A stretch of 64,000 nucleotides of DNA from the IMG/VR virus record IMGVR_UViG_3300025450_000013. The stretch is one strand, 5' to 3'. The position numbers and the translations under genes were made by a program. Below are positions 1-61,734 of the stretch, piece by piece; within the stretch, counting starts at the first letter, position 1; each line of letters starts with the position of its first letter. The notes under the pieces are model-generated. The model saw only the letters and a program-made list of their open reading frames with translations, had not been told where the DNA came from and did no database searches. The DNA comes from a virus.

Positions 1-315
1 ATCATCAACAAAATTAAAAAGGTCATCAAGACGGGCATTACCTTCTCCATCAACTGGCGTACCAATCATAATTGCAACTACATCAGAGTCCTTGATGAAA
101 TCAAAATCGGTGGTAAAAAGGATTCTATCTTTCTTTAGATTGATTTTAAGAATATCTTCACCACCTTCTTCCGCATAAGGTGTGATACCAGCATTTAGTT
201 TATCAACGGCATCTTGATTGATATCAATACCATATACATTATGACCTGCTTCGGCCACGACACAGGCAAATGGAAATCCTACGTGCCCGCCGGCACCGAT
301 AACTGATACTTTCAT
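1..315 (-). CDS. Nucleotide-sugar dehydrogenase (UDP-glucose/GDP-mannose dehydrogenase family), N-terminal part; runs off the window edge
   Basis: Hand translation MKVSVIGAGGHVGFPFACVVAEAGHNVYGIDIN...DSDVVAIMIGTPVD shows a Rossmann Gly-rich loop and the family GTP motif; the ATG overlaps the upstream stop (TAATG). Confidence 0.85.
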   Translation of the reverse strand, partial: MKVSVIGAGGHVGFPFACVVAEAGHNVYGIDINQDAVDKLNAGITPYAEEGGEDILKINLKKDRILFTTDFDFIKDSDVVAIMIGTPVDGEGNARLDDLFNFVDD

Positions 316-1256
316 TATTTTGTCTCCAATAAAACATCCTCTATGTCATTACAGGTATCTTGGATGGTGTGGTTTGCCATGACATAGTTATAGGCACTAT
401 CAATCTTTTCTTCATCTCTCTTATGATTACGGAGAAGTTCCATCAACTCCTTTTCATCTTTATAAGTGGTGCCATAATAGCACATATCTTTGGCACCGGC
501 AATATCTCTGGCGTACCATGGAGTTTTATTCATCATAGCCTCAAGAAGAACAAGCCCAAATCCTTCCTCATAGGAGTTCATAATGTAAGCATCGGCCGAA
601 GAAATAGAAAATAAAACATCCGTCTTGGATTTACCAAAGAAACATTTGACCGCATCATTCTCGGCAGGCATCAAATGTTCCTCACCGTATCCATATAGAT
701 GGAGTTCTGCATTAGGAATCTTGGCCTTAGTAAATGCTTCGGCGAGAGGACCCATTGCTTTATGTGAATAAAAACCACCGGCAGAAACAAAGATAGTTTT
801 TGTTTTATCAAGATTTAGTCTAACATATGCTACTTGCTCAATACCATGCCGAATACGACGACCTTTTTCTAACACATTATGTTTTCTAAGATGATCAATA
901 TCCATGCTGGTAGAGTAACCAAGGAATCGGTGATGTTTTAGACCATGAACACACATCTGACTGTCGCTTGGTTTTACAATTAGATAAAGAACAGGAGATT
1001 TTATTCTATCAGCATTTAGATGAACGATATTCTGTGCCTGAACATCACCACCATGAACGATGATAAGGTCCCACTTTTCACCTAATGAATAGAAATCATC
1101 CAGAACCTTTACACCATTATAATCACCTTGGTTTGTAGGTGCCAAAACGAACACTTCATGCCCTCGTTTAAGCATTTCTTCGGCCATATTCTGGACATAA
1201 TACTCACTACCACCAGGATATGGAGCATAACGGTGAACCACAAATAATATTTTCAT
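315..1256 (-). CDS. GT4-family (GT-B) glycosyltransferase
   Basis: N-terminal YPGGSE motif and C-terminal EEGFGLVLLEAM (E-x7-E). Confidence 0.9.
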   Translation of the reverse strand: MKILFVVHRYAPYPGGSEYYVQNMAEEMLKRGHEVFVLAPTNQGDYNGVKVLDDFYSLGEKWDLIIVHGGDVQAQNIVHLNADRIKSPVLYLIVKPSDSQMCVHGLKHHRFLGYSTSMDIDHLRKHNVLEKGRRIRHGIEQVAYVRLNLDKTKTIFVSAGGFYSHKAMGPLAEAFTKAKIPNAELHLYGYGEEHLMPAENDAVKCFFGKSKTDVLFSISSADAYIMNSYEEGFGLVLLEAMMNKTPWYARDIAGAKDMCYYGTTYKDEKELMELLRNHKRDEEKIDSAYNYVMANHTIQDTCNDIEDVLLETK

Positions 1257-2167
1257 TTACCACCCATTACAAATGTTTCCCACCAATCACATAGGTTATT
1301 TAAATCGGTGAACTCATTAGGAATATCATTTTTAAATACAGTTCTCTCTATCTTATCTAGGTACTCTTGTTTACCAGCAGGAGAATCCAAATGTCTAATA
1401 TAGTCCACAACATCATCTAAGGTTTTAAAATTATGAACATTAATAAAGGCCTCGGTATTAAAGTCACGATTAACCGTTGGGCTACCCCAATAAATCGGCA
1501 TTGTCTTGGTCTGGAATGCGTTTAGAATTTTCTCTGTAACATAACCAGGATAAGAACCATTCTCAAAGCAAATGTTAAACCTATAGTTGTTGAGAAACTC
1601 CAGTTTATATTTTAACTTATCTCTTGGTAGAATGGCATTCATGTTGTTTAGATGTGGCCCAGCCGAGTGTACCTTTTTATATTGACTTGTAAGGTGGAAC
1701 ATGGCATTCCGCATCTCTTGTCTAGGATTAGATACAACAAAAGAACAGAAATCTCTGTTATCATAATCTTTTTCATAGTCGTGTACCACATTTTTAATCT
1801 GGTAAAAATCATCTGTCCATCCTTCTTGGACAGCACCATGCATATCAACCACATAAAGTGGTAGACGATAATGCCTTGATGTGTTTAGGTGATCAAATGT
1901 AATTGCAAAGTGAGCCTTATCTAAAGGAGGACGAACATTCTCACCTGTAAATGCGATAGTCACCATATTAGGATTTTTAAATTGACTCCAATTATAATGA
2001 CTATCAGTATAAAAACTCTGATTAGGATTCAAATCACCAAATATTAGGTAATCAGGATTCTTATCATCTCTCTTTACATCAAATCTACGGCCTAATGCTT
2101 CCATAAAAAAGTTTTCGGCCGTAGAAAATGAATATATGAATCCAAGTTTAAGAGGTTTTTTCATCAT
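1253..2167 (-). CDS. GT10-family alpha-1,3-fucosyltransferase-like protein
   Basis: FTGENVRP, FCSFVVSN and YRFNICFENGSYPGYVTEKILNAF...PIYWG, the GT10 motif. Confidence 0.85.
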   Translation of the reverse strand: MMKKPLKLGFIYSFSTAENFFMEALGRRFDVKRDDKNPDYLIFGDLNPNQSFYTDSHYNWSQFKNPNMVTIAFTGENVRPPLDKAHFAITFDHLNTSRHYRLPLYVVDMHGAVQEGWTDDFYQIKNVVHDYEKDYDNRDFCSFVVSNPRQEMRNAMFHLTSQYKKVHSAGPHLNNMNAILPRDKLKYKLEFLNNYRFNICFENGSYPGYVTEKILNAFQTKTMPIYWGSPTVNRDFNTEAFINVHNFKTLDDVVDYIRHLDSPAGKQEYLDKIERTVFKNDIPNEFTDLNNLCDWWETFVMGGK

Positions 2168-2760
2168 TTATACCAGAAGAAGGTTGAGTTAGTTGATAGG
2201 TTAATAGGTGCTGTAATACCATTCTTTGTGCGGAAATCGTTTACTGCTTTATTAACATTTTGAATAGAAGAATAATCATGCCCACTAAACAATCCACCTT
2301 TTTTTAATAAAGGATAATATGCTTCACAGTCCGATAATGTAGCATCATATGAATGATCACCATCAACAAAGATAAAATCAAACTCCGCTTTATCTGTAAT
2401 GGTTTTAATTTTAGATGCAGCATCAATAGATGTTTCACGGATCATTTGCGCGCGATCACCATATTGTTTTAGGTTCTTTTGTGCAATATCTAGGAACTTA
2501 TCAATTGTATCTTGTGTAATCTCACCGTTCCAATCTTCATACGCCTTATATGGATCAATGGTGTATAGTTTAACAATGTTTGGGCATTTATCCAATAGAA
2601 ATGCTGTAGACTCGGCACGACATGTACCGATCTCAACACCAACTACGTTTTCACCAAGTCGTTTGATATAAGGTGCTAAACCTTTTACCGAAACCCATTC
2701 ATAAGGCCACTTATCACCAAGTTCCTCAATAGTCTTGAAATCATCTTCTCCTAAAGCCAT
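2164..2760 (-). CDS. Class I SAM-dependent methyltransferase (Methyltransf_24-like)
   Basis: GVEIGT, IDPY, FDFIFVDGDHSY, LKKGGLFSGHDY. Confidence 0.85.
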   Translation of the reverse strand: MALGEDDFKTIEELGDKWPYEWVSVKGLAPYIKRLGENVVGVEIGTCRAESTAFLLDKCPNIVKLYTIDPYKAYEDWNGEITQDTIDKFLDIAQKNLKQYGDRAQMIRETSIDAASKIKTITDKAEFDFIFVDGDHSYDATLSDCEAYYPLLKKGGLFSGHDYSSIQNVNKAVNDFRTKNGITAPINLSTNSTFFWYK

Positions 2761-2761
2761 C

Positions 2762-3658
2762 TTAATCTCCGTATTTGTTTTCTACTAATTCTTTCCAAAT
2801 AGGAACCCTATCCCACTGGTGAACAACTGTTGCCTTTTTACTATTGGCATAAATCTCGTTATCTGTTACATTATAGTCTATTTGTTTAACAAATGGCAAG
2901 ACCATCATAGGATTATTCCTATATGCCTCACCAATACCACCTGAACCAGCCTTGATAGCAGGTAAAGATGTACCAGCATGAATAACCCATCCATCGGTAG
3001 GATTAGTAAAATTTGTCTGGATTGTATAAGCGTCGGTTTGTAATAGGATGTTTAGAGCAGCCTGATCTGGTCCTCCACCACCGGGAACATGTGGATTAAG
3101 ACCATGACAAATTAACCAAACATTTAGAGCAAGATCACGCATAGCATTTCTTTTTCCTGCAATAACACCTGCACAATAGATTTCATTATCACCATGAGTT
3201 TCCAAGAAATAAGGACCGAATGCCTGTTGGAGATTGTTACAACCCCAAGGTTCATCTTTATACTTTAGATTTTCGGAACCAACAATAATTTGATTATCAT
3301 TATTGTTTAACCATTTTGATGGATCACTTTGAAATACCACATCACGAACATCTGTCATAATAACATTATTAACAGGTTCACTTAATACGTTTAGAAAACC
3401 ATATAGATGAAAGAAACGGTCAACCATGACAGAACCTTTGGAATTATCATGTTTAAATCCAGTCTTTTCATCATATTGGCCACAACCAATTAGCATAAAC
3501 TCTTCATCAGTAAGTTTCTTTACCGTTTCTGTGTCCATATTATAAACGATAAGAGCCTTATGACCTGTAAAACCGGACTTCTTAATAGAGTTGGCCCAAT
3601 ACTTAATCTTATCCCATTTATAGTTATCAACTACACCTACAATTAAATCTTTTGCCAT
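2762..3658 (-). CDS. Putative GT-A-type glycosyltransferase
   Basis: VDRF, MTDVRDVVFQSDP, DQAALN and VVHQWDR motifs; position within the sugar cluster. Confidence 0.6.
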   Translation of the reverse strand: MAKDLIVGVVDNYKWDKIKYWANSIKKSGFTGHKALIVYNMDTETVKKLTDEEFMLIGCGQYDEKTGFKHDNSKGSVMVDRFFHLYGFLNVLSEPVNNVIMTDVRDVVFQSDPSKWLNNNDNQIIVGSENLKYKDEPWGCNNLQQAFGPYFLETHGDNEIYCAGVIAGKRNAMRDLALNVWLICHGLNPHVPGGGGPDQAALNILLQTDAYTIQTNFTNPTDGWVIHAGTSLPAIKAGSGGIGEAYRNNPMMVLPFVKQIDYNVTDNEIYANSKKATVVHQWDRVPIWKELVENKYGD

Positions 3659-4389
3659 GGAAATTTTCCTTCATAATATTGTTCGTTTATCTTGTTACCT
3701 GAATCAAAAAATTCTTTACTTACCGAGTTGGGGTTGCCATCTAAACGATAGCAAAGTGTATGCTTACCGCTCGTATTATATTTTGAACGGTCTTTCACAG
3801 CATAGAGATACTGGCGGTCTCCACCCCAACCGGCATGCCAGTAGTGACATGTCTTTTGTAGAAATTCTCTTTTCCAACAGAATGATGATGTGTCTATTAG
3901 AAACTGGTCTCCATAAGGAGAGTTGCGTGAAGCAAATATTGGCCACTTGCCTAAACTTTCACAGTTGTCATCACAGAGATATTCTTTATTCGTATTATAT
4001 ATCTGTCGTAAAGAGTAAGCAAAATCTAAGTTCTGTGTCTCAATGGTTTCTATCAATGATGCTACATGGTCTGGTTGATACCAGTTGTCTTCATCAAGGA
4101 AGAGAATGTAATCGGAGTTTACTAGGTGTGGATATGCCGCATAGATACGATGACCATAGAATGATTGTTCACCAACTTTACCTGTGTTCTCTGGTGTTAC
4201 ACAAAATTGAATAGCACCACCAACAGCAAGAGGATATACTTTATCAAAATGTTCGGGTCCATCACATACAATTAAATGCTTACACTTGTAGGTTTGGTTT
4301 GCTACCGACTCAATGGCATCTTTTAGTTTTGGAGAACCAATAGTAGGTGTAATAACCGTTACAGGTTTTTCAATCACAAGTTTCATCAT
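3643..4389 (-). CDS. GT2-family glycosyltransferase
   Basis: VTVITPT...SVANQT...IVCDG; YILFLDEDN (DxD). Confidence 0.85.
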   Translation of the reverse strand: MMKLVIEKPVTVITPTIGSPKLKDAIESVANQTYKCKHLIVCDGPEHFDKVYPLAVGGAIQFCVTPENTGKVGEQSFYGHRIYAAYPHLVNSDYILFLDEDNWYQPDHVASLIETIETQNLDFAYSLRQIYNTNKEYLCDDNCESLGKWPIFASRNSPYGDQFLIDTSSFCWKREFLQKTCHYWHAGWGGDRQYLYAVKDRSKYNTSGKHTLCYRLDGNPNSVSKEFFDSGNKINEQYYEGKFPWQKI

Positions 4390-4447: not shown

Positions 4448-4987
4448 TTAGGCTACTTTCTTACCTGTCTTCTCTCCAGCAAGCTGCTTTTGAAACGCCG
4501 TTGCCTCAGAGAGGAACTGTCTCGTCGCCTCCCCGACGCCGAACGGATCCAGGATGTCGATTTTCTTCGCCTTCTTCTCTTCGGGAATAAATCGTTCAAG
4601 AAAGATTTTAAGAAGTCCATTAGCCATCTCCGCGTTCTTTACAACGACCGTGTCGGCAAGTGTAAATTGGCGAGTGAAAGCACGGTCAGCAATACCTTTG
4701 AAAATGTAGTCTTTATCATCATTCTCTAAGCGGCCAGAAACCGTCAAAACATCATCCTTCAATTCAATATCAAGGTTCTGTTTTCCGAAACCAGCAAGGG
4801 CGATTTCGATAACAAAATGTTCCTCGTCGACCTTCTTGATATTGTATGGAGGGTATGATGGGATTTTTGGAGCGTATTCACTTGCTTCCTGTAATCGTCT
4901 AAGGATCGTATCAAATCCAATAGCAGTCTTAGGAAGATTTCCAGATGTTAACCCAAAGGGGTCAAATAGTAGATGTTCTTTAGTCAT
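4448..4987 (-). CDS. hsp20: Small heat-shock protein (Hsp20/IbpA-like)
   Basis: IGFD, SYPPYNIKK, IEIALAGF, GIADRAFTRQFTLA, NGLLKI, IPEEKK. Confidence 0.95.
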   Translation of the reverse strand: MTKEHLLFDPFGLTSGNLPKTAIGFDTILRRLQEASEYAPKIPSYPPYNIKKVDEEHFVIEIALAGFGKQNLDIELKDDVLTVSGRLENDDKDYIFKGIADRAFTRQFTLADTVVVKNAEMANGLLKIFLERFIPEEKKAKKIDILDPFGVGEATRQFLSEATAFQKQLAGEKTGKKVA

Positions 4988-5046
4988 GTGTTTCTCCTAT
5001 AGTTAGCGAGAATAAAAGTGAATGAATCCTCCTGGAAACATTCACA
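4988..5046 (-). promoter_or_regulatory. ROSE-type RNA thermometer in the hsp20 5' UTR
   Basis: UUCUC-G-CU pairs with the SD AGGAGAA leaving the diagnostic bulged G of the U(U/C)GCU motif; an upstream hairpin GUGAAUG/CAUUCAC precedes it. Confidence 0.75.
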
Positions 5047-5049
5047 TAT

Positions 5050-5079
5050 ATTATATAGTAAACTTATTGATCTTGTCAA
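5050..5079 (-). promoter_or_regulatory. sigma70-type promoter for hsp20
   Basis: TTGACA-18 nt-TATAAT. Confidence 0.7.
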
Positions 5080-5420
5080 CCAATTCTCCAACTAGAACCG
5101 TCAGAATATACAGGAACTGGTGTAGATCCTCCACCTGTTACGACAACACCAATTACGTTATTAGAAAAGTCATTAGAGGAATCAGTAACAAATGCCCTTC
5201 TTCCTAAACCAACAGATGCAGATGGTAATCCTGATACCGTTGTTGGTAATGTATAAAAACTATTCTTAGAAACGTCAAAAACAATCGTGCTATTATAAGA
5301 TAGTTGTAATAGACGAGATGCCGCACTCTCACCAATAGATGTAACACTCATTCCAATACCAGTATAGGTATTGCTAGAGTTTACCCAAGATGCTGTAAGA
5401 TTTCCAATAGGAGTTGTCAT
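5076..5420 (-). CDS. Small virion-associated protein (tail-spike-like C-terminus)
   Basis: S/T/G-rich; ends TVSGLPSA...RAFVTDS...VPVYSDGSSWRIG, resembling tail-appendage C-termini; coupled to the upstream PAAR-like gene. Confidence 0.45.
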   Translation of the reverse strand: MTTPIGNLTASWVNSSNTYTGIGMSVTSIGESAASRLLQLSYNSTIVFDVSKNSFYTLPTTVSGLPSASVGLGRRAFVTDSSNDFSNNVIGVVVTGGGSTPVPVYSDGSSWRIG

Positions 5421-6100
5421 GTTGTCACCATTGCTGAAGTTAAGTTCATTGCTGGATAATAATCCAAATATGTTTGTACCACTACTCTATCACCAGAATC
5501 CGTAACAATAGCATTAGTAACACTATCGGCACTTGCATATGGTGTACCACTTACATAAAGAACAGTTGTAAGATAGTTACCTGAGGTCTGTCCTACTATA
5601 TTTTGTCCTGGATTAGCATTTACACCTGGTGTTAGTCCACTTATCTGAGCTACGGCACCAGAACCACCAATCTGTGTGAAACTAGAAACAGTTCCTAAAA
5701 CTTGGCCTGCTACAGACACCAACTCACCAACTTGTAAAGAACCCAGCCCACCACCAAGTAGTTTATTCATAATACCAAGTGTAGCACCCATACTACCCAT
5801 ACCAATCATGACATCATTAGAACCTTGTATTGGTATTGGAAATCCTTTAACATGAGGAGTAATACCAATAATGTCAGGTGATGCTTGACTTATAATAGCA
5901 GGAATAGCAGGTATACCACCAATCAAAACATTGTGTTGTAATACGTTAATCAACTGACCTAGATTAGTATGAGTGTCAATATCACCAACAACAGCAGGTG
6001 TTCTATTGTTAATTTTTACATTAGAACTTTCTGCCAGTAGGCATTTAGAAAGAGCACCGCACATTCTCATCATCAAATCAAGGTGAATGGGAAAGGTCAT
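5417..6100 (-). CDS. PAAR-like spike-tip protein with C-terminal extension
   Basis: Three PAAR-type repeats (SNVKINNRTPAVVGD, NVLIGGIPA, GSNDVMIG) with Cys/His candidates (RMCG, DTH, TPH), then about 125 extra residues. Confidence 0.55.
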   Translation of the reverse strand: MTFPIHLDLMMRMCGALSKCLLAESSNVKINNRTPAVVGDIDTHTNLGQLINVLQHNVLIGGIPAIPAIISQASPDIIGITPHVKGFPIPIQGSNDVMIGMGSMGATLGIMNKLLGGGLGSLQVGELVSVAGQVLGTVSSFTQIGGSGAVAQISGLTPGVNANPGQNIVGQTSGNYLTTVLYVSGTPYASADSVTNAIVTDSGDRVVVQTYLDYYPAMNLTSAMVTT

Positions 6101-11341: not shown

Positions 11342-11380
11342 AATATATACTTCCTTTTTCATAGTTAAGTTTCGTCGTTT

Positions 11381-11452
11381 TGGAGCGGAGACTGTGTAAT
11401 CGAAACACAGATTCCAGGGGGGACCTGGGTAATACCTTTATACGATCTCCGC
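11381..11452 (-). tRNA. Non-canonical tRNA-Gly-like RNA (CCC-containing loop), 72 nt, encoded CCA
   Basis: GCGGAGA TC GTAT AAAGGT ATTAC CCAGG TCCCC CCTGG AAT CTGTGT TTCGATT ACACAG TCTCCGC T CCA: perfect 7-bp acceptor stem, U73, glyT-like D-arm, but a 6-bp T-stem and a shortened anticodon loop. Confidence 0.8.
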
Positions 11453-11486
11453 ATTTATACCCTGCTATAATACCGACGATTTTTAT

Positions 11487-11515
11487 ATTATAGCAAAGTA
11501 TTGGTGTTATGTCAA
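11487..11515 (-). promoter_or_regulatory. Consensus sigma70 promoter driving the tRNA-like RNA and HTH gene
   Basis: TTGACA-17 nt-TATAAT, extended -10 TG, upstream A-tract. Confidence 0.85.
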
Positions 11516-11527
11516 CAACTTTTTTTA

Positions 11528-11655
11528 TCTCTTTAGAAGGATACAGGTTTACTACCGTCCGCATTATGATGGTGGCCATTCCAGAGCATAACCTATTTGG
11601 TTGGCAAGGTTCAGGGTGATCATTCCCCAAGCGAGCCTGTATCCATCTAAGGAGA
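11528..11655 (+). ncRNA. Unidentified structured RNA (about 25-bp closing stem around a multibranch core), antisense to flanking genes
   Basis: TCTCTTTAGAAGGATACAGGTTTACT pairs with AGCGAGCCTGTATCCATCTAAGGAGA; inner hairpins CTACCGTC/GATGGTGG and AACC/GGTT; irregular pairs are mostly G-U on + but A-C on -. Confidence 0.55.
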
Positions 11656-11682
11656 CAGGGGAAAATCCCCTGTCATTTTTTT
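11654..11682 (+). terminator. Plus-strand intrinsic terminator
   Basis: GACAGGGGA-AAA-TCCCCTGTC-A-TTTTTTT; no U-tract in the minus direction. Confidence 0.75.
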
Positions 11683-11683
11683 A

Positions 11684-12910
11684 TTAGAAAGTAGGACCAG
11701 AGGCGCCATTAGCACCAACGGCACCCGGATACTCAACTTCACCAGTAGCACCTGTAGCACCAACAACAGGATCGGCGGTTTCATCCACTTTACGATACAA
11801 CTCTAAAAAGGCATTTTTCGTATCAACGTCAAAACGGTTGAGGCACAATTCAATAGCCTTTACCTTGTTTTGGTTGAAGATGGAATATGCCTCGCAGATA
11901 TGGACAAGACGGCGGGTTGAGATGATTTCACTCAAAGCACCTTCAAAGAAGGACTTGCGGATAACATCTGCCCAAGTAACCAACTTGTCAACAAACTCCG
12001 TTGCGGTGATACCGGATGCTTGTAGAACATTGTTGAGGATTTTTGTCTCAACCTTAGCGGCAGGATATTCTTGTTCCATTGTAATGCTGAAACGCTCAAG
12101 GAACGCCTCATTCATAACATTGGTGCCGATAAAGCGGCCGTCATCAGAACCTTTGCCTTTAGTATTGGCAGTGGCAACAATGTTAAAACCTGACGCAGGG
12201 TGAACCACACGGTTAGTTTTTTTCAGATAGATTGCTTTACCTTCAAGCACCGGCTGGAGGCACATAAGTTTGTTGGAACCGAGGTCAACCTCGTCCAGTA
12301 ATAGTAAGGCACCGCGAGACATAGCAGTAATAACAGGACCGTCTTGCCATACGGTCTCGCCATTGATAAGACGGAAACCACCGATAAGGTCGTCCTCGTC
12401 GGTCTCAATTGTAATGTTGACACGGACACATTCTTTCTTTTCTTGGGCACATACTTGTTCCACCATCATAGTTTTACCGTTGCCAGAAAGGCCGGTGATA
12501 TATGTTGGATAGAACTTTTTGGATTTGATGATAGCACGGACGTCCGTGAAATGGCCGAACGGAACATAACCGAGTGCCTTTTCAGGAACAAGTGAAACCT
12601 CGGCGTTAGTAGAAACAACCGAAGGTGCCACCATAGCAACGGCCACGGCAGGCGCCGCTTTCGGAGTTGGTGCCTTAGGAGCCGGGGCAACTTTTTTAGC
12701 AACCTTTGGAGAAGCATCGGCGCCGTGTTCAGGAAGAGAATAGATACCACGACCAATCTTGCGGGATACGTCATTAAGTATCCAGTTAGGTTTATCAAGT
12801 CCGTATTTGTCGCAGATTTCCAGGACTTGCGGACGGGTGATTGAACGGATAGCACCAAACTCGAAACGGATTTTATCGAGGAACTCGGTGCGGTCAATCT
12901 TCTTAGCCAT
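11684..12910 (-). CDS. cobS: MoxR/CobS-like AAA+ ATPase
   Basis: GLSGNGKT, DEDDLIGG, WQDGPV, LLLDEVD, ATANTKGKG, NEAFLERF, ISTRRL; start moved to MAKKI because the track start lies upstream of the promoter. Confidence 0.9.
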   Translation of the reverse strand: MAKKIDRTEFLDKIRFEFGAIRSITRPQVLEICDKYGLDKPNWILNDVSRKIGRGIYSLPEHGADASPKVAKKVAPAPKAPTPKAAPAVAVAMVAPSVVSTNAEVSLVPEKALGYVPFGHFTDVRAIIKSKKFYPTYITGLSGNGKTMMVEQVCAQEKKECVRVNITIETDEDDLIGGFRLINGETVWQDGPVITAMSRGALLLLDEVDLGSNKLMCLQPVLEGKAIYLKKTNRVVHPASGFNIVATANTKGKGSDDGRFIGTNVMNEAFLERFSITMEQEYPAAKVETKILNNVLQASGITATEFVDKLVTWADVIRKSFFEGALSEIISTRRLVHICEAYSIFNQNKVKAIELCLNRFDVDTKNAFLELYRKVDETADPVVGATGATGEVEYPGAVGANGASGPTF

Positions 12911-12946
12911 TAGAACTATTCCTTTCAGATTTCTCATTATATATGG

Positions 12947-12975
12947 ATTATAGCATACGGAATGGTAGGTGTCAA
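12947..12975 (-). promoter_or_regulatory. Consensus sigma70 promoter for the cobS-like gene
   Basis: TTGACA-17 nt-TATAAT with extended -10 TG. Confidence 0.85.
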
Positions 12976-12978
12976 CCA

Positions 12979-13284
12979 TTATTTTCGATTGTAAACACCG
13001 TTGTTTTTCTTAGACTTTTTCTTTGAGTATGCCTTCTTGATTTCCTCAGGGTATGTAAACAAGCACAGGTCGGCACTCGCACCTTCCCAAGGAACCCATC
13101 GTTTTACTGTGGCACGGTCATCTTGCTTATCATATTCATAACTTCCGTGTGTGTTCCACCACAAGTCAAACTTGTTTTTAGGGCGCCATATATCAATAAA
13201 TCGCCAATAGTTTGTATCATAGTTATCTTCCAACCATCCAGCATATCGACCATTATCTCGGTCAGGAGATTTATATTCTTTCAT
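12979..13284 (-). CDS. Hypothetical Trp-rich protein
   Basis: 101-aa ORF coupled (TAATG) to the upstream vWA gene. Confidence 0.6.
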   Translation of the reverse strand: MKEYKSPDRDNGRYAGWLEDNYDTNYWRFIDIWRPKNKFDLWWNTHGSYEYDKQDDRATVKRWVPWEGASADLCLFTYPEEIKKAYSKKKSKKNNGVYNRK

Positions 13285-16210: not shown

Positions 16211-17470
16211 TTATCTTCCCACCTGTGTTAGGTATTTGGCCTTTGTCTCTTCCCAATCCATATAGATTAGGTCATCATAGAAAAGAGTTTCCTTAGAAAC
16301 ACGGTCTTGCTCAATCAAGGACTTGATCCGTTTTCCTGCATACTTGTCTTTCCATAGATTTACCAGAGCATCATAACTGGAATCAAACGCCTTGGCAAGT
16401 TTATCTTCGGTGATTTCCTTACGAAGAAACTCGTTGGTGTTGTTATACAAAGGACTAAAATAGATACCACGGGCATGTTCAGAACGGATAAGTTCTTTAG
16501 GAATATTCAGTTGAGAATATATAAATGTGTAAGAACGGTTTTTGTGGTCTCTTTTATAAGGCAAACCATCAAGGTTCTTAGCTACATACCACTCAAAGTA
16601 TTTGCGGGTATGGTTTTTCTTCAACCAATCTAGCATTAGTTTTACAGTAGGTTTTCTTGCTTCATAAGAGACAGAGCCTGATGTGAAGCCCATTTTCTTC
16701 CAATGTTGTAGGCGATCATATTGCGATAACTGGTTAGTTTTAGACTTACCGTATAATGATGTAGTAGTGACGCCAATGAGTGTATCACCATATTGTTTTT
16801 TCCAATCCTGTTGTACCTTATCACAAAGACAAAGTAATGCTAAAAGTTTACCACCTGTGTAGTTATAACCAAGTGGTTGTAGAGGCACAATGGTAGAACC
16901 AATGGCCGTATGATTGATCATACCTTGACTTGTCTTAACATCACGGGACCATCCAATATGGTTATCTCGTGGAGTCAAGTCTAAGAAGTCAGAAGAGATA
17001 CAAATTACCCCTAGGTACTTTCCGGTAACATCATCTTGAACAATATAATTCATGTTCCTTCCGATGTTGTTATTATTCTTCATGGTAGAAGTAAAGTTGC
17101 GAATGGTGTTCCATTTACTAGCAAGATCACCACCATTAGAATAGATTAGTCTAGGTTGCAATTTCTCATAGTCTATTGGATCGTTTGGTATCCAAATATT
17201 ATCTTTAATAGATTGAATATACTTTTTATCCTTTTCATCAATATCATCATCATATAATCCACCTGGTATGATAGGATATTTGATATGGATTTCTAACCAC
17301 TTTTGATAGAGTGTGTATTCCTCTACAGTCATAGCGGATACATTTGTGAGGTCCTCAATGACGACCTTTTTTAGTTGTTCATCATTAAGGGCCTCAGGTG
17401 TTTCAAATGTAGAGTTAAATGCATCCCATTGCTTTTCAACATTTTTTAGTTCTTCATCACTTTTTGCCAT
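16211..17470 (-). CDS. DUF4338/DruA-like protein, probable Mom-related GNAT fold
   Basis: IGRNMNYIV, LGVICISS, PRDNHIGW, PLGYNYTGGKLLALL, GVTTTSLYG, SQY, WKKMGFTSG. Confidence 0.7.
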   Translation of the reverse strand: MAKSDEELKNVEKQWDAFNSTFETPEALNDEQLKKVVIEDLTNVSAMTVEEYTLYQKWLEIHIKYPIIPGGLYDDDIDEKDKKYIQSIKDNIWIPNDPIDYEKLQPRLIYSNGGDLASKWNTIRNFTSTMKNNNNIGRNMNYIVQDDVTGKYLGVICISSDFLDLTPRDNHIGWSRDVKTSQGMINHTAIGSTIVPLQPLGYNYTGGKLLALLCLCDKVQQDWKKQYGDTLIGVTTTSLYGKSKTNQLSQYDRLQHWKKMGFTSGSVSYEARKPTVKLMLDWLKKNHTRKYFEWYVAKNLDGLPYKRDHKNRSYTFIYSQLNIPKELIRSEHARGIYFSPLYNNTNEFLRKEITEDKLAKAFDSSYDALVNLWKDKYAGKRIKSLIEQDRVSKETLFYDDLIYMDWEETKAKYLTQVGR

Positions 17471-54142: not shown

Positions 54143-54159
54143 TTACTATGGAGTTTGCT

Positions 54160-55329
54160 ATGAAAATTGGTCTTATAGGTGATCATATTACCGATATTTA
54201 TATATATGGGAAAATGACTAGGTTTTCACCGGAGTCTCCTATTCCTATCTTTGACATAGAGAGAGAAGAAAGTCGTTCTGGCGGTGCTTCCAATGTCAAT
54301 AACAATCTAATGGCCCTTGGTGCTTCTGTTGATTACCACTGTGACAAAATAAACTATTCTATCAAAAAACGATATGTCTGTGACGGCCACATAATGTTCC
54401 GTGTGGATGCCGATAAGACCAGCACCGTTGATCCATGTCTTGCCGAATTTACCGAAGAAACCAAGTATGTCATCCTTTCCGACTATGGTAAGGGTATTTT
54501 GACATATAGTTCTGAAGTTATTGATAAACTGAAGCAAGATGGTAAGATCGTCATTGTTGATCCTAAAAGGCATATCAGTCATTATGAAGGTGCTGATATT
54601 GTCAAGATGAATGAGAAAGAATATTATCAGTTCTGCCCACAGGGAAAAGGTGCTTTAAAGTATTATGATATAGGAACTTTTGTGATAACCTTGGGTGGCA
54701 AAGGTGTTAGAATTATTAATGAAAATGGTGATACAACAATTCCAGGTCTAGGATTACAAGTATCTGATGTGACAGGCGCCGGTGATGTGTTCATTGCTGC
54801 TATGACATACTACCTAGCAAAAGGTAAAGACATATATCAGGCCTGTGATATTGCGAACAAGTATGCGGCTAAGTCCGTAACCAAGTTTGGTACCTATACA
54901 ATTACCGAAGATGATAAAAGAGAGATTGAAGGTAAGATAGTATTCACCAACGGTTGCTTTGATATTCTACACCGTGGCCACATTGAATATCTACAAAAGT
55001 CTAAAAAATTAGGAACTAAGTTAATTGTAGCTTTAAACTCAGATGAATCAGTTGCTAGACTAAAAGGCACTGTCAGACCACACAATAAGCAGGAAGATCG
55101 TAAGAGAGTATTAGAGGCTCTTGATTGTGTTGATGAGGTTATTATCTTTAATGGTGACACACCATATGAAATAATTAAAGATTTGAAGCCTGACATTATA
55201 ACAAAAGGTGGTGATTATAAGACTAAAGAAGAAGTGGTCGGGCATGATCTTGCTGAGGTCGTTATATTACCTTTTGTTGATGGATATTCTACTACTAAAA
55301 CATTGGAGTATATGAATGGAGATTGTTGA
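54160..55329 (+). CDS. hldE: Bifunctional heptose-7-phosphate kinase / heptose-1-phosphate adenylyltransferase
   Basis: R.SPE.P.P, GGA.NV..N, ILSDYGKG, VDPK, DVTGAGD (PfkB), then FTNGCFDILHRGH, NSDESV..LKG..RP, KGGDY, GYSTT. Confidence 0.93.
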   Translation: MKIGLIGDHITDIYIYGKMTRFSPESPIPIFDIEREESRSGGASNVNNNLMALGASVDYHCDKINYSIKKRYVCDGHIMFRVDADKTSTVDPCLAEFTEETKYVILSDYGKGILTYSSEVIDKLKQDGKIVIVDPKRHISHYEGADIVKMNEKEYYQFCPQGKGALKYYDIGTFVITLGGKGVRIINENGDTTIPGLGLQVSDVTGAGDVFIAAMTYYLAKGKDIYQACDIANKYAAKSVTKFGTYTITEDDKREIEGKIVFTNGCFDILHRGHIEYLQKSKKLGTKLIVALNSDESVARLKGTVRPHNKQEDRKRVLEALDCVDEVIIFNGDTPYEIIKDLKPDIITKGGDYKTKEEVVGHDLAEVVILPFVDGYSTTKTLEYMNGDC

Positions 55330-55666
55330 GAAGAAATGGGGTAGAGAGATAATCTTTGCCAATAATGATAAGTATTGTGGTAAACTTCTTATACATGATA
55401 AATCCGGTTCTAAAGGTTCTATGCATTTCCATATGAAGAAACATGAGACCTTTTATGTCCAGAAAGGTATATTCAAGATACACTGGATTGAAACCAATGA
55501 TGCAAAGATACATAATACTATCCTTAGAGAAGGTGATACATGGGTCAATGAACCTGGGCAACCGCATCAGATTGAGGCTTTAGAGGACAACTCAACTATA
55601 ATCGAGGTATCTACAACACACTTTGACAATGACAGTTATAGAGTTATGCCAGGAGACGGTCAATGA
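55316..55666 (+). CDS. Cupin-fold sugar isomerase/epimerase-like protein
   Basis: KWG.E, YCGK.L, SMHFH..KHETFYV, PHQ, IEVST. Confidence 0.75.
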   Translation: MEIVEKKWGREIIFANNDKYCGKLLIHDKSGSKGSMHFHMKKHETFYVQKGIFKIHWIETNDAKIHNTILREGDTWVNEPGQPHQIEALEDNSTIIEVSTTHFDNDSYRVMPGDGQ

Positions 55667-55965
55667 AGTATATAATGGATATCGACGGAACAATCTGTAC
55701 CAATACTAATGGTGATTATGAGAAGGCAACTCCTTATCTAGACCGCATAGATTATATCAATCACCTATATGATAAAGGGCATGAGATACATTACTGGACG
55801 GCCAGAGGTGGTAACTCAAGGAGAGATTTATCAGAACTAACCAAAAAACAATTAAAAGAATGGGGATGCAAATACACCTCACTAAGATGTGATAAACCAG
55901 CATATGATTACTGGATAGATGACAAGGCATTTAATGATAGAGATTTCTTTGGAGTTAATTTATGA
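55663..55965 (+). CDS. Minimal HAD-family phosphatase
   Basis: DIDGTIC, WTARG, KP..D.WIDDKA. Confidence 0.8.
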   Translation: MKYIMDIDGTICTNTNGDYEKATPYLDRIDYINHLYDKGHEIHYWTARGGNSRRDLSELTKKQLKEWGCKYTSLRCDKPAYDYWIDDKAFNDRDFFGVNL

Positions 55966-56753
55966 TATTGATAACTGGTCATAAAGGATTTATCGGTCAA
56001 AACCTTGTTAATAGATTAAATGATAAACTCTTTTGCCTTTCTGATATTGACAGTTGCTTCAAAGACCTTTATTTAACACCTTGGGAAGATATAGAAGAAA
56101 TATGGCATATGGGTGCCATCTCTGATACTACTTGTACCGATTTAAATAAAATCCATACTTATAACATAGAATATACCATAAATCTATTTGAACTTGCTAT
56201 TCAATATAAGATACCAGTAAAGTATGCCTCGTCCGCGTCCGTGTATGGAAACACTAACTATCGTAGAGAGATTAATCCACTAAACTTCTATGCTATGTCT
56301 AAGGCTACTATTGATCGTTGGGTAATGGATAATTTATACAAGTTTGAATCTATACAAGGTTATCGTTTCTATAATGTATATGGTAAGCATGAAGACCATA
56401 AAGGTGGCCAGGCCAGTCCGATACATACATTCATCAAGCAGGCAAAAGAAACAGGAACGATTAAACTATTTGAAAACTCGGTTGCCTATATGAGAGACTT
56501 TATTTGGGTTGAAGATGTTATAAATTGTATGCTGTATGATAAACCAAGTGGTATATATGATCTAGGAACTGGAGTAGCAAGGTCGTTTGAAAGAGTGGCT
56601 GAAATCATAGCAGACAGATATAATGCCAAGTTAGAGTATGTTCCATTTCCAAAACACCTTGAAGACAAGTATCAATACTTCACTTGTTCATTAAATCACT
56701 TTGATCATACATTCACATCAATAGAGGAATATGTTAATGAAAGAGGAGTATAA
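55962..56753 (+). CDS. hldD: ADP-L-glycero-D-manno-heptose 6-epimerase-like SDR
   Basis: ILITG..GFIG.N, H.GAIS.TT, YASSASVYG, PLN.YA.SK, R.YNVYG..E.HKG..AS, RDFI.V.DV, KYQ.FT. Confidence 0.9.
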   Translation: MILITGHKGFIGQNLVNRLNDKLFCLSDIDSCFKDLYLTPWEDIEEIWHMGAISDTTCTDLNKIHTYNIEYTINLFELAIQYKIPVKYASSASVYGNTNYRREINPLNFYAMSKATIDRWVMDNLYKFESIQGYRFYNVYGKHEDHKGGQASPIHTFIKQAKETGTIKLFENSVAYMRDFIWVEDVINCMLYDKPSGIYDLGTGVARSFERVAEIIADRYNAKLEYVPFPKHLEDKYQYFTCSLNHFDHTFTSIEEYVNERGV

Positions 56754-57348
56754 AGAGATTGCACCTGGCTGGTTATGGCAGTCTAATGTCACTAGTGATC
56801 TTATGAAATATGATGAGAACTATGTAAAACCATACACTAAGTATGATGATACTCTCTCATATATTAGACTCAACTTTTGTCAAAAGTATGCCAAGTTTTA
56901 TTCGGTTCTTGATGTTGGATATGGCGACGGTAACTTTCTCAAAGTATGTAATCGTGAAGGATACAAATGTTTTGGTAATGATATATCAGGATATTCTTTA
57001 TCAGACGGAATAACTTTTACTGAAAATAGAAATATACCTGTTGACCTTGTTACGTTCTTTGATTGTATTGAACACTTTCCACAAGAAAATGTTGAAGAGG
57101 TATTAAAAGAACTAAATTGTAAGTATATCTGCATTTCGATTCCTTGGTGTCATTTTGATAATTTTGAAATATGGAAACACCGCAAGCCTAATGAACATTT
57201 CCATCATTTTGGTGTTAGAGGTGTTACTGAGTTATTGAATAGAGGTGGGTTTGATTTGATTGTTTCTGCTTCAATTGAAGATCAAGTTAGGTCAAACAAA
57301 GGCGGAATACCAAATATTTTAACTGTTATTGGAAAGAAAAGATGTTAA
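56731..57348 (+). CDS. Class I SAM-dependent methyltransferase
   Basis: VLDVGYGDG.F, DLVTFFD.IEH, EH.HHF. Confidence 0.8.
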   Translation: MLMKEEYKEIAPGWLWQSNVTSDLMKYDENYVKPYTKYDDTLSYIRLNFCQKYAKFYSVLDVGYGDGNFLKVCNREGYKCFGNDISGYSLSDGITFTENRNIPVDLVTFFDCIEHFPQENVEEVLKELNCKYICISIPWCHFDNFEIWKHRKPNEHFHHFGVRGVTELLNRGGFDLIVSASIEDQVRSNKGGIPNILTVIGKKRC

Positions 57349-58022
57349 ATTTATATTATTCGCATAGGACAGATGTTGAAAAAGCATACATTATTACAAT
57401 AAAGGGTAATAATATGTCCGAAAAATATTCAAAAAGATGTCAAGAATCGTGTAAAAATGTTGGTATGCAATATCAAGTATGGGACGCATTTGATGGAACT
57501 GGTGATGAAATAATAATACCAGAACACTCTAAGAATAATCCCATTTTTAAAATGGTGAAAATACAAGATCATCATATGACAAAAAGTGAACTTAGTTGTT
57601 TTCTTAGTCATTTAAGTTTATGGGCTAGATGTGTCGAGATAGACCAACCAATAGTTATACTTGAACATGATGCTATAATGGTAAAAAAGTTTGAAAATAA
57701 AACTAGTTATAATTCTATTGTATATCTTGGTTGTGAAATATGGGCAAAAAAAGGATCTAATATAGAAGATATTCCAATATATGGATCTGGTGGAATGAAT
57801 AATCTTTATATATATAAAGGACATGCATATTGTATAGATCCACAAGTTGCTAAGAATATGTTATCAGATGTTTTTAAGCGTGGTATATGGACAATTGCAG
57901 ATAGATTTATGAAAGCAGATTTATATAACATAACTCATCAAGGATTATATGCTTTTGAAAATAAATTTAACGATGAAGATTCTACTATAGTTCCAAGAGA
58001 GAAAGATGAATATACATGTTAG
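57342..58022 (+). CDS. GT25-family glycosyltransferase-like protein
   Basis: AFDG, E.SCFLSH..LW..C, IVILEHDA, HAY.I.P..A. Confidence 0.8.
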   Translation: MLNLYYSHRTDVEKAYIITIKGNNMSEKYSKRCQESCKNVGMQYQVWDAFDGTGDEIIIPEHSKNNPIFKMVKIQDHHMTKSELSCFLSHLSLWARCVEIDQPIVILEHDAIMVKKFENKTSYNSIVYLGCEIWAKKGSNIEDIPIYGSGGMNNLYIYKGHAYCIDPQVAKNMLSDVFKRGIWTIADRFMKADLYNITHQGLYAFENKFNDEDSTIVPREKDEYTC

Positions 58023-58852
58023 ATGAAAATATGCAAAATTATTTAAGTCATATGTTTGACATGGTTAGTGATTTAAGAGACTTAAAGTTATATGAAAGAA
58101 CCAATACATCTAAGAATCCTTTAAATCATTATGGTCGTAGGGCTTTCAGTCAGTCAGACGAAGATGGTATTACACAAGAGATTATGAAACGTATAGGAGT
58201 TGATAATGGAGTTTTTGCTGAATTTGGAGTAGGATCAGGTTTAGAATGTAATACATTATTGTTAGCTGGATTAGGTTGGTCAGGGTTTTGGGTTGACGCT
58301 GGAAACATATTACCTAAAATTGAACAATCTGCAAATCCAAAATTTTCATTTTTTAAACGTCATATAACATTAAATAACGTATTAGAAACATACTTACAGT
58401 GTTTGAAATATATTAATAAAGAAGAAACAGATTTTATTTCTTTTGATTTTGAAGGTAATGATTATTATTTAATTGAGAGATTATTGCAATCTGGAGTATC
58501 TCCTAAAGTATTCGTAGTTGAATATAACGCTAAATTTATACCACCCATTGAATGGAAAGTTAAATATCATGAAAATCTAATATGGGAATATGATGATTAT
58601 TTTGGTGCTTCTCTTATGTCATATGTTAAATTGTTTGAAAAACATAATTATTTTCTTGCATGTTGTAATAGTTTTACAGGAGCAAATGCTTTCTTTATTA
58701 AAAACAAATATAAAGAATTTTTTAGTGATATTCCAAAATCAATCAATGATATTTGGGTTGAGCCTAGATATTATATTACTAAAAAGTATGGTCATAAGAG
58801 TTCTGTTAGGACTGTAGAATTGTTGCTTAATAATTTAAACTCTTGTCAATAA
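58016..58852 (+). CDS. FkbM-related methyltransferase-like protein
   Basis: FSQSDEDGI, EFGVG.G.ECNT, ISFDFEGNDYY, VVEYN, GASL, GANAFF. Confidence 0.7.
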   Translation: MLDENMQNYLSHMFDMVSDLRDLKLYERTNTSKNPLNHYGRRAFSQSDEDGITQEIMKRIGVDNGVFAEFGVGSGLECNTLLLAGLGWSGFWVDAGNILPKIEQSANPKFSFFKRHITLNNVLETYLQCLKYINKEETDFISFDFEGNDYYLIERLLQSGVSPKVFVVEYNAKFIPPIEWKVKYHENLIWEYDDYFGASLMSYVKLFEKHNYFLACCNSFTGANAFFIKNKYKEFFSDIPKSINDIWVEPRYYITKKYGHKSSVRTVELLLNNLNSCQ

Positions 58853-60053
58853 CAGATATCCAATCACCCATCTTCTGTTGACGCCAAACAGTAACATCAG
58901 GAAACCAATCTGATTTACCTCCGTTTTCGGCAGCACACCAAGTAAAATAACCAACCACAATATCATAAAGATATGTTTTAATACCTAATGCGCCAGCAGC
59001 GACCGAAACGCTTGAACTACTGGTATAACACATTTTACACAAGCTAAGAATAGCAAGCGTATCATCCCAATCTTTTATATCTTTTGTTAAATCAATTACG
59101 CCTTCTGGACATGTTTCTGCTCCCATACAAACAGAAATTAGTGTTCCTTGGTGCTTAATCTTATCAATAAGGTATTCAATTGGTATTGTTCTCAGATCAT
59201 TTTCTGAGTGTTCTTTATCACCCGTCCAATTTAAAGCAATTAAATTGTCATACATTTTAAGTTTTTGTTTCCACTTTGCTAGATAAACTGGATTAGGTTC
59301 TAAATATTTTTCATTACCAGGTTTTTCTACTTTCAAATTAAATGGTAAACTCATAGAAGGTACCCAATAATCATATTTGATTGTTGGATCTACTGGAAAA
59401 ACTTTAAAGTTTCTTGATATAACATTCTTTAAACTATTATCAGTGTAGTAATATACAAAAGCACCCATGTCTTTTAACATAGGAATCCATCTACTGAATA
59501 TCATTTCGTCGCCAAGCCCAGCTTCTCCTATGACGCATATTTTAGATCCTTTAATATTTTGATAACCAAACCATCTATCTACATTTGGAGGAGGAAGTTT
59601 TTCATTAGTCCAAAACGCACCATTTCTTCCAATCTCCGTTTCAATAAACGCTTCTTTAAATTTACCCTTTCTGTGTAAAAACCATCCTATATCTAAGTGT
59701 TTATCCTCACATTCTATTTGATTGTTTTTGATATACTCGTAACCTTCGTCATATCTACCAAGTCTAGTTAGATATTGAGCGTATTGCCTTATATCCGTTT
59801 TATCTTTAGATTTAGTTATATCCATGTATTCTTGAAATAGTTCTAAAGATTTGTCAATTTCACAAAGATTGTAATGACAAATTGCTGAATTTTTAAGAAC
59901 ATCAGGATGTCTATATTCTAATAAATCTAATGTTAGTAGATTCTGATTAATAGACTCCCGAAACATTTTTTTATTATAATATTCTATTGATAATGATTCG
60001 GAAGCCTCAACAGATTTATTTATTTGAAAAGTATTCATCAATCGCTCTATCAA
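58827..60053 (-). CDS. TPR-containing GT-B (GT9-like) glycosyltransferase
   Basis: N-terminal helical repeats; EAGLGDE.IFSRW, DYWVP.MSLP, W.G, R.IP, DWDDT.A, S..SV...AGALG. Confidence 0.75.
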   Translation of the reverse strand: MIERLMNTFQINKSVEASESLSIEYYNKKMFRESINQNLLTLDLLEYRHPDVLKNSAICHYNLCEIDKSLELFQEYMDITKSKDKTDIRQYAQYLTRLGRYDEGYEYIKNNQIECEDKHLDIGWFLHRKGKFKEAFIETEIGRNGAFWTNEKLPPPNVDRWFGYQNIKGSKICVIGEAGLGDEMIFSRWIPMLKDMGAFVYYYTDNSLKNVISRNFKVFPVDPTIKYDYWVPSMSLPFNLKVEKPGNEKYLEPNPVYLAKWKQKLKMYDNLIALNWTGDKEHSENDLRTIPIEYLIDKIKHQGTLISVCMGAETCPEGVIDLTKDIKDWDDTLAILSLCKMCYTSSSSVSVAAGALGIKTYLYDIVVGYFTWCAAENGGKSDWFPDVTVWRQQKMGDWISVIDKSLNY

Positions 60054-61734
60054 TATCTACTTGACTATATCTCGGCGGTTTGTGAACCTGAACCAATATT
60101 TTAGTCAAAGCAGCAACATTATTATAATTATTAAGAGAGAAAGAAACATCCTCTTGTGTAGCTTTGTTTTTTTCAAACATTTCTAACCAATTCGTATTGT
60201 AGATATATTCAACTAAACAAACCTCTATATCTATATTATTTTGAAGACATAGAATTGCTTCTGAAGGAGCTTTAGAGAATTTATCCATACAAAATTTCAT
60301 ATCAAACATTTTAAATGTGTCTGGATGAATTAATCTTTTATGTGTCGGATCAATCAAAGCCAAATCACTACGATGATGTGGAACTTGAATTTCCCAAATT
60401 GCACCATGTTTACTGATTCTATACATTTCCTTAATGACATTAACTGTATCATCAAGATGTTCAATTATATCTTTAGCGACAATGTGATCGTATTCACCAT
60501 CAGGAATGTCCCAATTTTTAGAATTGAGATCCACAATTCTATCTGGTCTTACTATTGGAGAATAATCAACATTATCATAACCTTTCACTTTATCAAAACC
60601 ACAACCAAGGTTTATCTTTTTACATTCTTTATCACAGCTTGGTAGGTCGATGTGTTTTAAATTAAACTCATTTTCAAGATCTTGATACATTTCCTGAAAC
60701 ACATCATTCCATTTTGTTGGATTAGTTTGCCTATAAACCCTAACAGATTTATAAAATGGTGAAGTTTTTGATTCTGGAGCACCAAGAGTCCATGTGTGAT
60801 AAGGGAGCGTTGGTGTGAATACCCAAGTCTCTTTACCAAGAGCAGCTGCCGCATGAGCGATACTTGTGCAAGAGGTTATAATAAGATCCAATTGTGATAA
60901 TGCAGAAAGAGTGTCTTCCCATGAAATTAATAGATATTGAAGATCAGTTATATTTTCAGGAAGAATTTGTAGATTATGATCTCTCTGTAGGCTATAGATA
61001 TCCAAATCTTCATGTTTAGCAAGGTTTATCATAAACTCTGGAGGAAATCTACGAAACTGTTGATGTTCAAATTTTGGATTACCAGACCATCTAATTCCAA
61101 CTTTTTTCTTTCCATTATTTTTAATAATGGAAGACCAAACTTCATAAGAAGAAGGTATCGGAGATAGATATGGTTCATTTGGTAAATTATCATATGTATG
61201 ACCTAAAACCCAACCAGCACTGAAACCCGGAATCCAGTAATCATGTTGGACCGTATGTGATTGGTCTCTCTGAATAACACCATCTACGCCAGGAACTCTT
61301 GTGAAAATTGAAGCAATTTCAGGAGCAGCTGCTAAATAAACCTTATTGGCTCCTAATTTTTTTGCAGTTTGTGCAAAACGAGAATGAATAATTTCATCGC
61401 CATAACCACCTTCAAGAGAGATGATAATAGATTTTCCTTTAATATCATGTTCTTCTGGATTGTATATTGGTGCAGAAGTTTGTAGATGACCACTACCGTA
61501 GACGTTAATGAATCTACCAGATTCTAAAAGTTGAGAACCTTCACGATAATTTCCTTGCTGTAAAAGAAACCAACCTCTGTTGAAATTATGTCTAAGCCAC
61601 ATCTCAGGATTTTTATTTCCTTGCGGGTCAAGAATATTATCTTTACCCAAAGCCTGTAATTTTTCAGATATTTTCCAACCTTCTTCAAACTCACCCTTTA
61701 ACATATGCTCAAGTTGCAAATCAATATCATGCAT
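60016..61734 (-). CDS. TPR/GT9-like glycosyltransferase fused to a C-terminal methyltransferase
   Basis: EGGYGDEI...RF, VGIRWSGNP, YSLQ, WEDT...L..LDL.ITSCTSIAH.AAALGK; then INLGCG, IIEHL, DPTH; late promoter TATAAATA at 61773-61780. Confidence 0.8.
   Translation of the reverse strand: MHDIDLQLEHMLKGEFEEGWKISEKLQALGKDNILDPQGNKNPEMWLRHNFNRGWFLLQQGNYREGSQLLESGRFINVYGSGHLQTSAPIYNPEEHDIKGKSIIISLEGGYGDEIIHSRFAQTAKKLGANKVYLAAAPEIASIFTRVPGVDGVIQRDQSHTVQHDYWIPGFSAGWVLGHTYDNLPNEPYLSPIPSSYEVWSSIIKNNGKKKVGIRWSGNPKFEHQQFRRFPPEFMINLAKHEDLDIYSLQRDHNLQILPENITDLQYLLISWEDTLSALSQLDLIITSCTSIAHAAAALGKETWVFTPTLPYHTWTLGAPESKTSPFYKSVRVYRQTNPTKWNDVFQEMYQDLENEFNLKHIDLPSCDKECKKINLGCGFDKVKGYDNVDYSPIVRPDRIVDLNSKNWDIPDGEYDHIVAKDIIEHLDDTVNVIKEMYRISKHGAIWEIQVPHHRSDLALIDPTHKRLIHPDTFKMFDMKFCMDKFSKAPSEAILCLQNNIDIEVCLVEYIYNTNWLEMFEKNKATQEDVSFSLNNYNNVAALTKILVQVHKPPRYSQVDIDRAIDEYFSNK

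Follow-up and report, generated by a model that had tools for sequence, protein, structure and literature searches.

A non-canonical phage tRNA-Gly with a collapsed anticodon loop, and a DruA-family GNAT as its candidate partner

Introduction

What would a phage do with a tRNA-Gly that keeps its acceptor end and has an anticodon loop of only five nucleotides? The question is raised by a 72-nt element in a 64,000-nt stretch of viral DNA (IMG/VR record IMGVR_UViG_3300025450_000013; hereafter, the window). Genes for gp23, gp45, a clamp loader and cobS show that the window belongs to a T4-like myovirus; it comes from freshwater metagenomes, and comparison of cobS places pelagiphages and cyanophages nearest to it among cultured phages. 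Examples of dedicated non-ribosomal tRNAs come mainly from staphylococcal cell-wall synthesis. An initial annotation, made from the window alone, described the element as apparently chargeable by GlyRS yet unusable by the ribosome, and proposed a glycine donor for a tRNA-dependent transferase or, alternatively, a decoy.

Results

A real, conserved RNA with a glycine acceptor end

The cloverleaf described in the initial annotation, with an encoded CCA and a 5-nt loop, was seen on the minus strand of the window (Table 1). Its acceptor stem comprises 7 bp, beginning with G1-C72, C2-G71 and G3-C70, and is followed by U73 and CCA; this is the acceptor set of a canonical tRNA-Gly according to the GlyRS identity set of PMC9976931. 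By contrast, where a canonical tRNA-Gly has a 7-nt anticodon loop with U33, C35-C36 and a purine at position 37, the hairpin of this RNA (CCAGG/CCUGG) has the 5-nt loop UCCCC (5–6 nt in relatives), and in place of a 5-bp T stem and a 12-bp acceptor+T helix there is a covarying 6-bp T stem, closed by U-A, with the loop UUCGAUU. GG (G18/G19) and UUCGA are retained. A preferable reading of the anticodon stem, 4 bp with a 26:44 pair in addition, gives a variable region of normal length (4 nt). The fold scored z = -3.8, with none of 200 shuffles equally good; the 3-bp D stem is weak, being present in the MFE structure and absent from the centroid.

Table 1. Positions of the RNA, its parts and the surrounding features in the window
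Feature	Position	Strand	Description
tRNA-Gly-derived RNA ("type A")	11381..11452	-	72 nt, 7/6 acceptor/T helix, 5-nt anticodon loop, encoded CCA
Acceptor stem, 5' strand	11446..11452	-	partner 11391-11385; U73-CCA = 11384-11381
Anticodon arm, shortened	11414..11428	-	15 nt, versus 18 in most relatives and 19 in canonical tRNA (positions 26-44)
T arm, one additional bp	11392..11410	-	covarying: outer pair C-G/G-C, inner pair U-A/G-C
DruA/DUF4338 (PF14236) protein, 419 aa, GNAT fold	16211..17470	-	candidate glycyl-transferase partner, 4.76 kb upstream of the RNA
Sigma70 consensus promoter, extended -10	11487..11515	-	TTGACA-17-TATAAT, 12/12 with TG; retained in close relatives
Leader stem enclosing the RNA	11372..11479	-	11479-11474 paired with 11377-11372
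Inverted repeat	11457..11501	.	left arm 11501-11486 on the -10 box; right arm 11472-11457 in the transcript
73-aa protein, probably helix-turn-helix	11120..11341	-	co-transcribed; presence of the RNA does not depend on it
cobS-like AAA ATPase gene	11684..12979	-	synteny marker; deformed tRNA-Gly of HTVC008M likewise 3' of cobS

Standard tRNA finders had been expected to return a low score or a pseudogene call; ARAGORN made no call, and neither did Rfam at gathering and E-value thresholds. The element is spanned without indels by contigs from two other runs (X3, X4), ruling out an assembly error, and the identical 72-nt form is present in several IMG/VR and JGI contigs from independent samples. 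In relatives, the leader at this site is either empty or filled by the element, with a canonical tRNA-Gly in none of them; neither of two findings that would have told against the initial annotation, a canonical tRNA-Gly here in relatives or an assembly error, was made. We conclude that the 72-nt RNA is a real, conserved, non-canonical tRNA-Gly.

The type A family varies in the loop and not at the acceptor end

Relatives of this RNA (type A) were gathered through loci of the downstream 73-aa gene, DNA patterns and a covariance model; the pattern matches L066/G018, with 7 nt in the anticodon loop and 8 nt in the T loop, and L073 were excluded. Ten distinct relatives share the 7/6 plan, and one further relative (L100) has a bulged T stem. 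The acceptor end, GCG/CGC-U-CCA, is unchanged in every type A row and in every row of type B, described below. The anticodon loops of type A are UCCCC, UUCCCA, UUCCAU, UUUCAU and UUUAU. Nine pairs, including the extra T-stem pair, have changed on both sides, which none of 500 shuffles matched; kinship of the sequences can inflate this count, but slid-register controls were nonetheless far lower. The check proposed in the initial annotation, covariation across homologues in related phages, supports its view that the paired stems reflect selection and not decay. Two other claims stood in part: the acceptor end of the GlyRS identity set is invariant in the family, whereas the loop CC is missing in L074 and L075; and the additional T-stem pair covaries, whereas its closing U53-A61 is present in just 4 of the 10 members.

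No type A RNA is more shortened than the window form; relative to a 75-nt form from which it can be derived, it lacks one entire stem pair and one base of the loop. One run (X2) contains both short and 75-nt forms, and another (X18) has the 72-nt form at a second locus. Type A also occurs at unrelated loci (L056, L100) and immediately 3' of a canonical tRNA-Gly, ending tRNA clusters (L074, L075); blastn found no type A relative in cultured phages. Together, the conservation and the pattern of loci indicate a trans-acting RNA in which the 3' end and the shape are under selection and decoding is not. A tRNA-Gly pseudogene, inherited by descent and decaying, would explain the patchy presence, the loss of CC in L074/L075 and the window form being the shortest of type A. 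However, there are compensatory changes in all stems, the partners of one pair were lost together, two copies are maintained in one population, and the acceptor end is invariant; we regard a pseudogene as very unlikely, this reading being already largely refuted by the covariation.

Some tRNA-Gly-like sequences outside the family are also unusual. L073 1435-1507 (-) and L076 9134-9206 (-) combine a tRNA-Gly-like body and a bulged T stem with the loop CAUCAAA, which places UCA where the anticodon would be; they are clustered with two normal tRNA-Gly genes. In a 285-kb phage (L066 545-619 and 2358-2432 (-), G018), the T loop is 8 nt long in both tRNA-Gly genes, and neither a DruA-like gene nor a Mom gene was detected in this phage. 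Within the family, the element's second locus, L056, lies upstream of a gene (4768-5772 (-)) with 4Fe-4S-type cysteine motifs that by eye resembles epoxyqueuosine reductase.

A promoter shared with the downstream gene

The perfect sigma70 promoter of the initial annotation was confirmed 35 nt upstream of the RNA, but it is common to the RNA and to the small gene downstream, in whose leader the RNA is located. Reading the product of that gene as helix-turn-helix is probable, and a lead only. Its leader offers a further explanation, in which the RNA is a tRNA-shaped processing or stability element acting in cis; the RNA indeed follows the promoter and precedes the gene, enclosed by a leader stem. 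However, the same leader exists without the RNA in L008, L012 and L014, and the element is found at the unrelated loci and tRNA-cluster ends named above, with the 72-nt form at the second locus in X18. We consider a cis-acting signal scarcely probable.

The inverted repeat of this region is independent of the tRNA-like RNA, and its arms co-vary between relatives. All leaders of the 73-aa gene (window 11457-11501, L001-L055) have such a repeat, of 13–16 bp, plus a closing leader stem. The repeat suggests autoregulation via a DNA operator, a cruciform or RNA-DNA pairing.

A DruA-family protein with a GNAT fold is encoded in the window

The proposal of a donor for a tRNA-dependent transferase gained a candidate partner within the window, a 419-aa protein whose gene is surrounded by phage genes; in the Druantia defence system, DruA shares an operon with the other Dru genes and the DruE helicase. 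The protein matched Pfam PF14236 with E 3e-21 (76 bits, cut-off 27), and all 67 of its 67 homologues matched the same family. Its AF2 model (pLDDT 84) adopts a GNAT fold. Mu Mom (8BV8) ranked first in both Foldseek (E 2.3e-3, prob 1.0) and VIA-align (Z 9.9, rmsd 3.7, 165 aligned), although this Z lies less than 1 unit above those of ordinary acetyl-CoA GNATs. Four profile comparisons of the DruA group with Mom revealed homology neither of sequence nor of profile (hhalign probability <1% with shallow and deep alignments), PF14236 was the sole family matched, and a sequence search of the DruA alignment against the PDB gave no match. The Mom motifs HY, R111, S124 and D149-x-R151 were not recognisable in the 419-aa protein, the catalytic R111, D149 and R151 having no evident counterpart. 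Because of the missing profile homology and motifs, we do not class the protein as Mom; a cyanophage homologue is labelled mom in GenBank, by annotation only. Mu Mom itself takes glycine from charged tRNA-Gly, whichever the isoacceptor, and attaches it to adenine N6 of dsDNA; it probably recognises only the acceptor (3') end (PMC13219725).

In a tree, the window enzyme and pelagiphage proteins form a supported clade (96/97), the members of which have a type A or type C RNA located away from the gene. Some genomes encode more than one DruA-like protein: G019 has two such genes in tandem (117469-119821), and G009 and G015 each have a close and a distant paralogue.

Deformed tRNA-Gly genes accompany DruA-like genes

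The association between DruA-like genes and such RNAs was measured across phages. At 55 of 77 viral loci of the gene, a Gly-acceptor mini-tRNA starts no more than 200 nt past the stop codon; by protein cluster, the adjacent RNA is present in 9 of 20, on an all-or-none basis. Elsewhere in 1.57 Mb there were just 3 matches, all type A. The 22 enzyme loci lacking an adjacent RNA are mostly fragments (<30% complete), and two of them have a type A RNA farther along. The adjacent mini-tRNAs (type B) are 63–69 nt long, sometimes occur as a tandem pair, and combine the GCG/CGC-U-CCA end with a reduced D arm, an altered T loop and an anticodon arm with a long stem and a short CC-containing loop; their stems covary strongly (15 pairs). 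A third form, type C, has a related D stem, a 7-nt loop and a T loop such as GGCAGUA or AGCGUUA.

The association also held in the reverse direction. A pattern scan gave 119 matches, which we sorted by eye into ~20 genuine-looking mini-tRNAs, 8 of them with a DruA-like gene 9–547 nt away, and ~99 chance matches, none of which lies beside such a gene. Three larger contigs of the reverse-scan remainder carry a DruA-like gene elsewhere, as does a phage with another 7/6 tRNA-Gly. Among genomes chosen independently of the RNA, a deformed tRNA-Gly was found in 8 of 9 larger genomes with the enzyme gene, including Mosig and HTVC008M, and in 0 of 10 genomes without it, or 1 of 10 with the T-loop insertion of G018 included; these genomes are related, so that the counts are not independent events, and the gene-negative ones are mostly cyanophages, in a search that required an encoded CCA. 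The exception among the nine, G003 (100% complete), has only canonical tRNA-Gly genes, and three cyanophages with a distant enzyme homologue have no deformed tRNA-Gly. We discounted a Fisher test on the genome counts, which took in two RNA-found genomes and treated related genomes as independent. The window RNA itself lies 4.76 kb from the enzyme gene in a separate transcription unit, and its link to the enzyme is therefore indirect.

The tRNA-Gly-like genes of the two cultured pelagiphages (HTVC008M, KC465899.1 91140-91213 (+); Mosig, MT647606.1 7779-7852 (-)) have ACC at the anticodon position, a D loop without GG and a non-consensus T loop. That of HTVC008M is unannotated and has the same position relative to cobS as the window RNA.

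Mini-tRNA-Gly genes at true Mom loci

We also looked at true Mom homologues (E 4e-56 to 8BV8). In a GC-rich, unrelated 38-kb phage, a mini-tRNA-Gly overlaps the end of a true Mom gene. At 6 of 55 true-Mom loci a mini-tRNA-Gly lies 3 nt past the domain; two more loci have one without a full CCA, and one more has one ~300 nt on. Querying GTDB with a true Mom sequence turned up a single locus. No mini-tRNA-Gly is present in Mu or at most true-Mom loci, indicating that a private donor is optional. In L313-L318, L358 and L368, 3 nt separate the final conserved Lys-Pro codons from the mini-tRNA-Gly, which begins within the open frame; tRNA processing would therefore cut the mom mRNA. A tRNA-Gly-like locus inside mom has been known since 2011, from Dehalococcoides islands, with no role proposed (McMurdie et al., 2011, PMC3146451).

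Discussion

The window RNA probably serves outside the ribosome, as a dedicated donor of glycyl groups to the DruA-family GNAT of the phage. More tentatively, and somewhat short of an even balance of belief, SAR11 and freshwater T4-like phages may have a two-part DNA hypermodification system, in which a DruA-family GNAT, unrelated to Mom in sequence, is fed by a phage tRNA-Gly that has been withdrawn from translation by several structural routes. Early sigma70 transcription would be followed by excision of the RNA from the leader by host tRNA-processing enzymes, and host GlyRS would charge it through the intact acceptor end, as the identity elements suggest. C35/C36 are GlyRS determinants (PMC9976931), and the 5-nt loop may charge poorly. 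Exclusion from translation would follow, possibly aided by the 13-bp helix. The GNAT would then transfer the glycyl group from the 3' end of the RNA, most likely to phage DNA as Mu Mom does, and glycylated phage DNA would resist host nucleases; of this scheme, the observed parts are the structure and conservation pattern of the RNA, the GNAT fold of the enzyme model and, at the level of families, the genomic association of the two. The shrunken loop may also protect the donor from host anticodon nucleases, and with a private donor the enzyme would not have to compete with EF-Tu and would escape the effects of host attacks directed at tRNA-Gly.

The initial annotation had pointed to the T stem, which EF-Tu reads, as well as to the short loop. 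The EF-Tu argument carries less weight than was supposed there: published T-stem rules, which were not built for a 6-bp stem, give predicted increments for the window RNA of 0 (from the acceptor end) or +0.8 kcal/mol (from the loop end), depending on register. The collapsed loop is firmer ground for non-decoding, since a loop of 5–6 nt would be unable to present an anticodon. A tRNA that does act in translation, for example as an adaptor for frameshifting or bypassing at glycine codons, is the least probable of the explanations considered here. Altered tRNA-Gly mutants can cause frameshifting, G18-G19 and UUCGA are kept, and the T stem is not clearly bad for EF-Tu. However, the loop varies freely in length and sequence, relatives with the same acceptor end lack a D arm or the T-loop consensus, and several carriers also encode a canonical tRNA-Gly.

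The RNA could instead be a decoy or inhibitor, absorbing a host defence that targets tRNA-Gly (an anticodon nuclease or a TacT-like toxin) or restraining the phage GNAT. Its conserved acceptor end suits a ligand of any protein that reads the 3' end, TacT reads U73 and G71 (PMC9976931), and an inhibitor of the GNAT would likewise be gene-linked. By contrast, a decoy for host defence has no reason to adjoin GNAT genes in several lineages, and a nuclease decoy would be expected to preserve the anticodon loop, where the RNA in fact varies most. We consider a decoy or inhibitor unlikely.

Several known systems resemble a donor RNA paired with a GNAT. Mu Mom shares the GNAT fold, as the best structural match of the 419-aa protein, and true Mom genes elsewhere carry mini-tRNA-Gly genes; however, Mu draws on host tRNA-Gly and has no such gene, and the window enzyme is of the DruA/PF14236 family, twice as long, with no detectable sequence homology. 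The pseudo-tRNA of Dehalococcoides ssrA islands is likewise a conserved tRNA-Gly-like locus tied to a Mom-type gene and missed or mislabelled by annotation, but it is 76 nt long and embedded in the mom homologue (PMC3146451), whereas the window RNA is free-standing, with a 7/6 helix, a collapsed anticodon loop and a DruA-type partner in a lytic T4-like phage. The staphylococcal NP1, NP2 and NEW tRNA-Gly for FemXAB (PMC4574755, PMC3239215) also keep Gly acceptor identity, with proposed diversion to a non-ribosomal GNAT-fold transferase. In these NP tRNAs the loop, with UCC, still has 7 nt and the helix 12 bp, and G18/G19 and the EF-Tu-friendly T pairs are lost; the window RNA, by contrast, has kept G18/G19 and UUCGA, lost the loop and gained a T-stem pair, and so does not show the staphylococcal-type loss of G18/G19 and U55/C56 (PMC4574755). 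Types B and C, with an altered T loop and no GG, are nearer to the NP tRNAs than type A is. The 13-bp acceptor+T helix recalls tRNA-Sec; however, the window RNA is 7/6, has neither a UCA anticodon nor a long variable arm, and has Gly and not Ser identity. The acceptor/T folds of tRNA-Sec are 8/5 or 9/4.

In the literature searched, coverage of which was incomplete, we found no report of a dedicated phage tRNA-Gly donor or of DruA as a GNAT, and none of a 7/6 form separate from the enzyme gene. If the donor reading is correct, phages have repeatedly evolved such tRNAs to supply a modifying enzyme with activated glycine, and standard tRNA finders overlook a class of donor tRNAs in phages. DruA/DUF4338, an uncharacterised family that is also a component of Druantia defence, would gain a testable biochemical activity. 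A modified base would be predicted in the culturable pelagiphages HTVC008M and Mosig, and the RNAs would be natural templates for tRNAs that are charged yet ignored by the ribosome.

Two further observations concern the window itself. A 128-nt element at 11528-11655 (+), antisense to every neighbour, has a plus-strand fold of z -5.7 versus -3.0 and belongs to no Rfam family; some strains have it and others are cleanly without it, and a terminator lies at 11654-11674 (+). Judged from translations only, 315-4389 (-) and 54148-61734 contain clusters of glycosyltransferase, methyltransferase and ADP-heptose-pathway-like genes.
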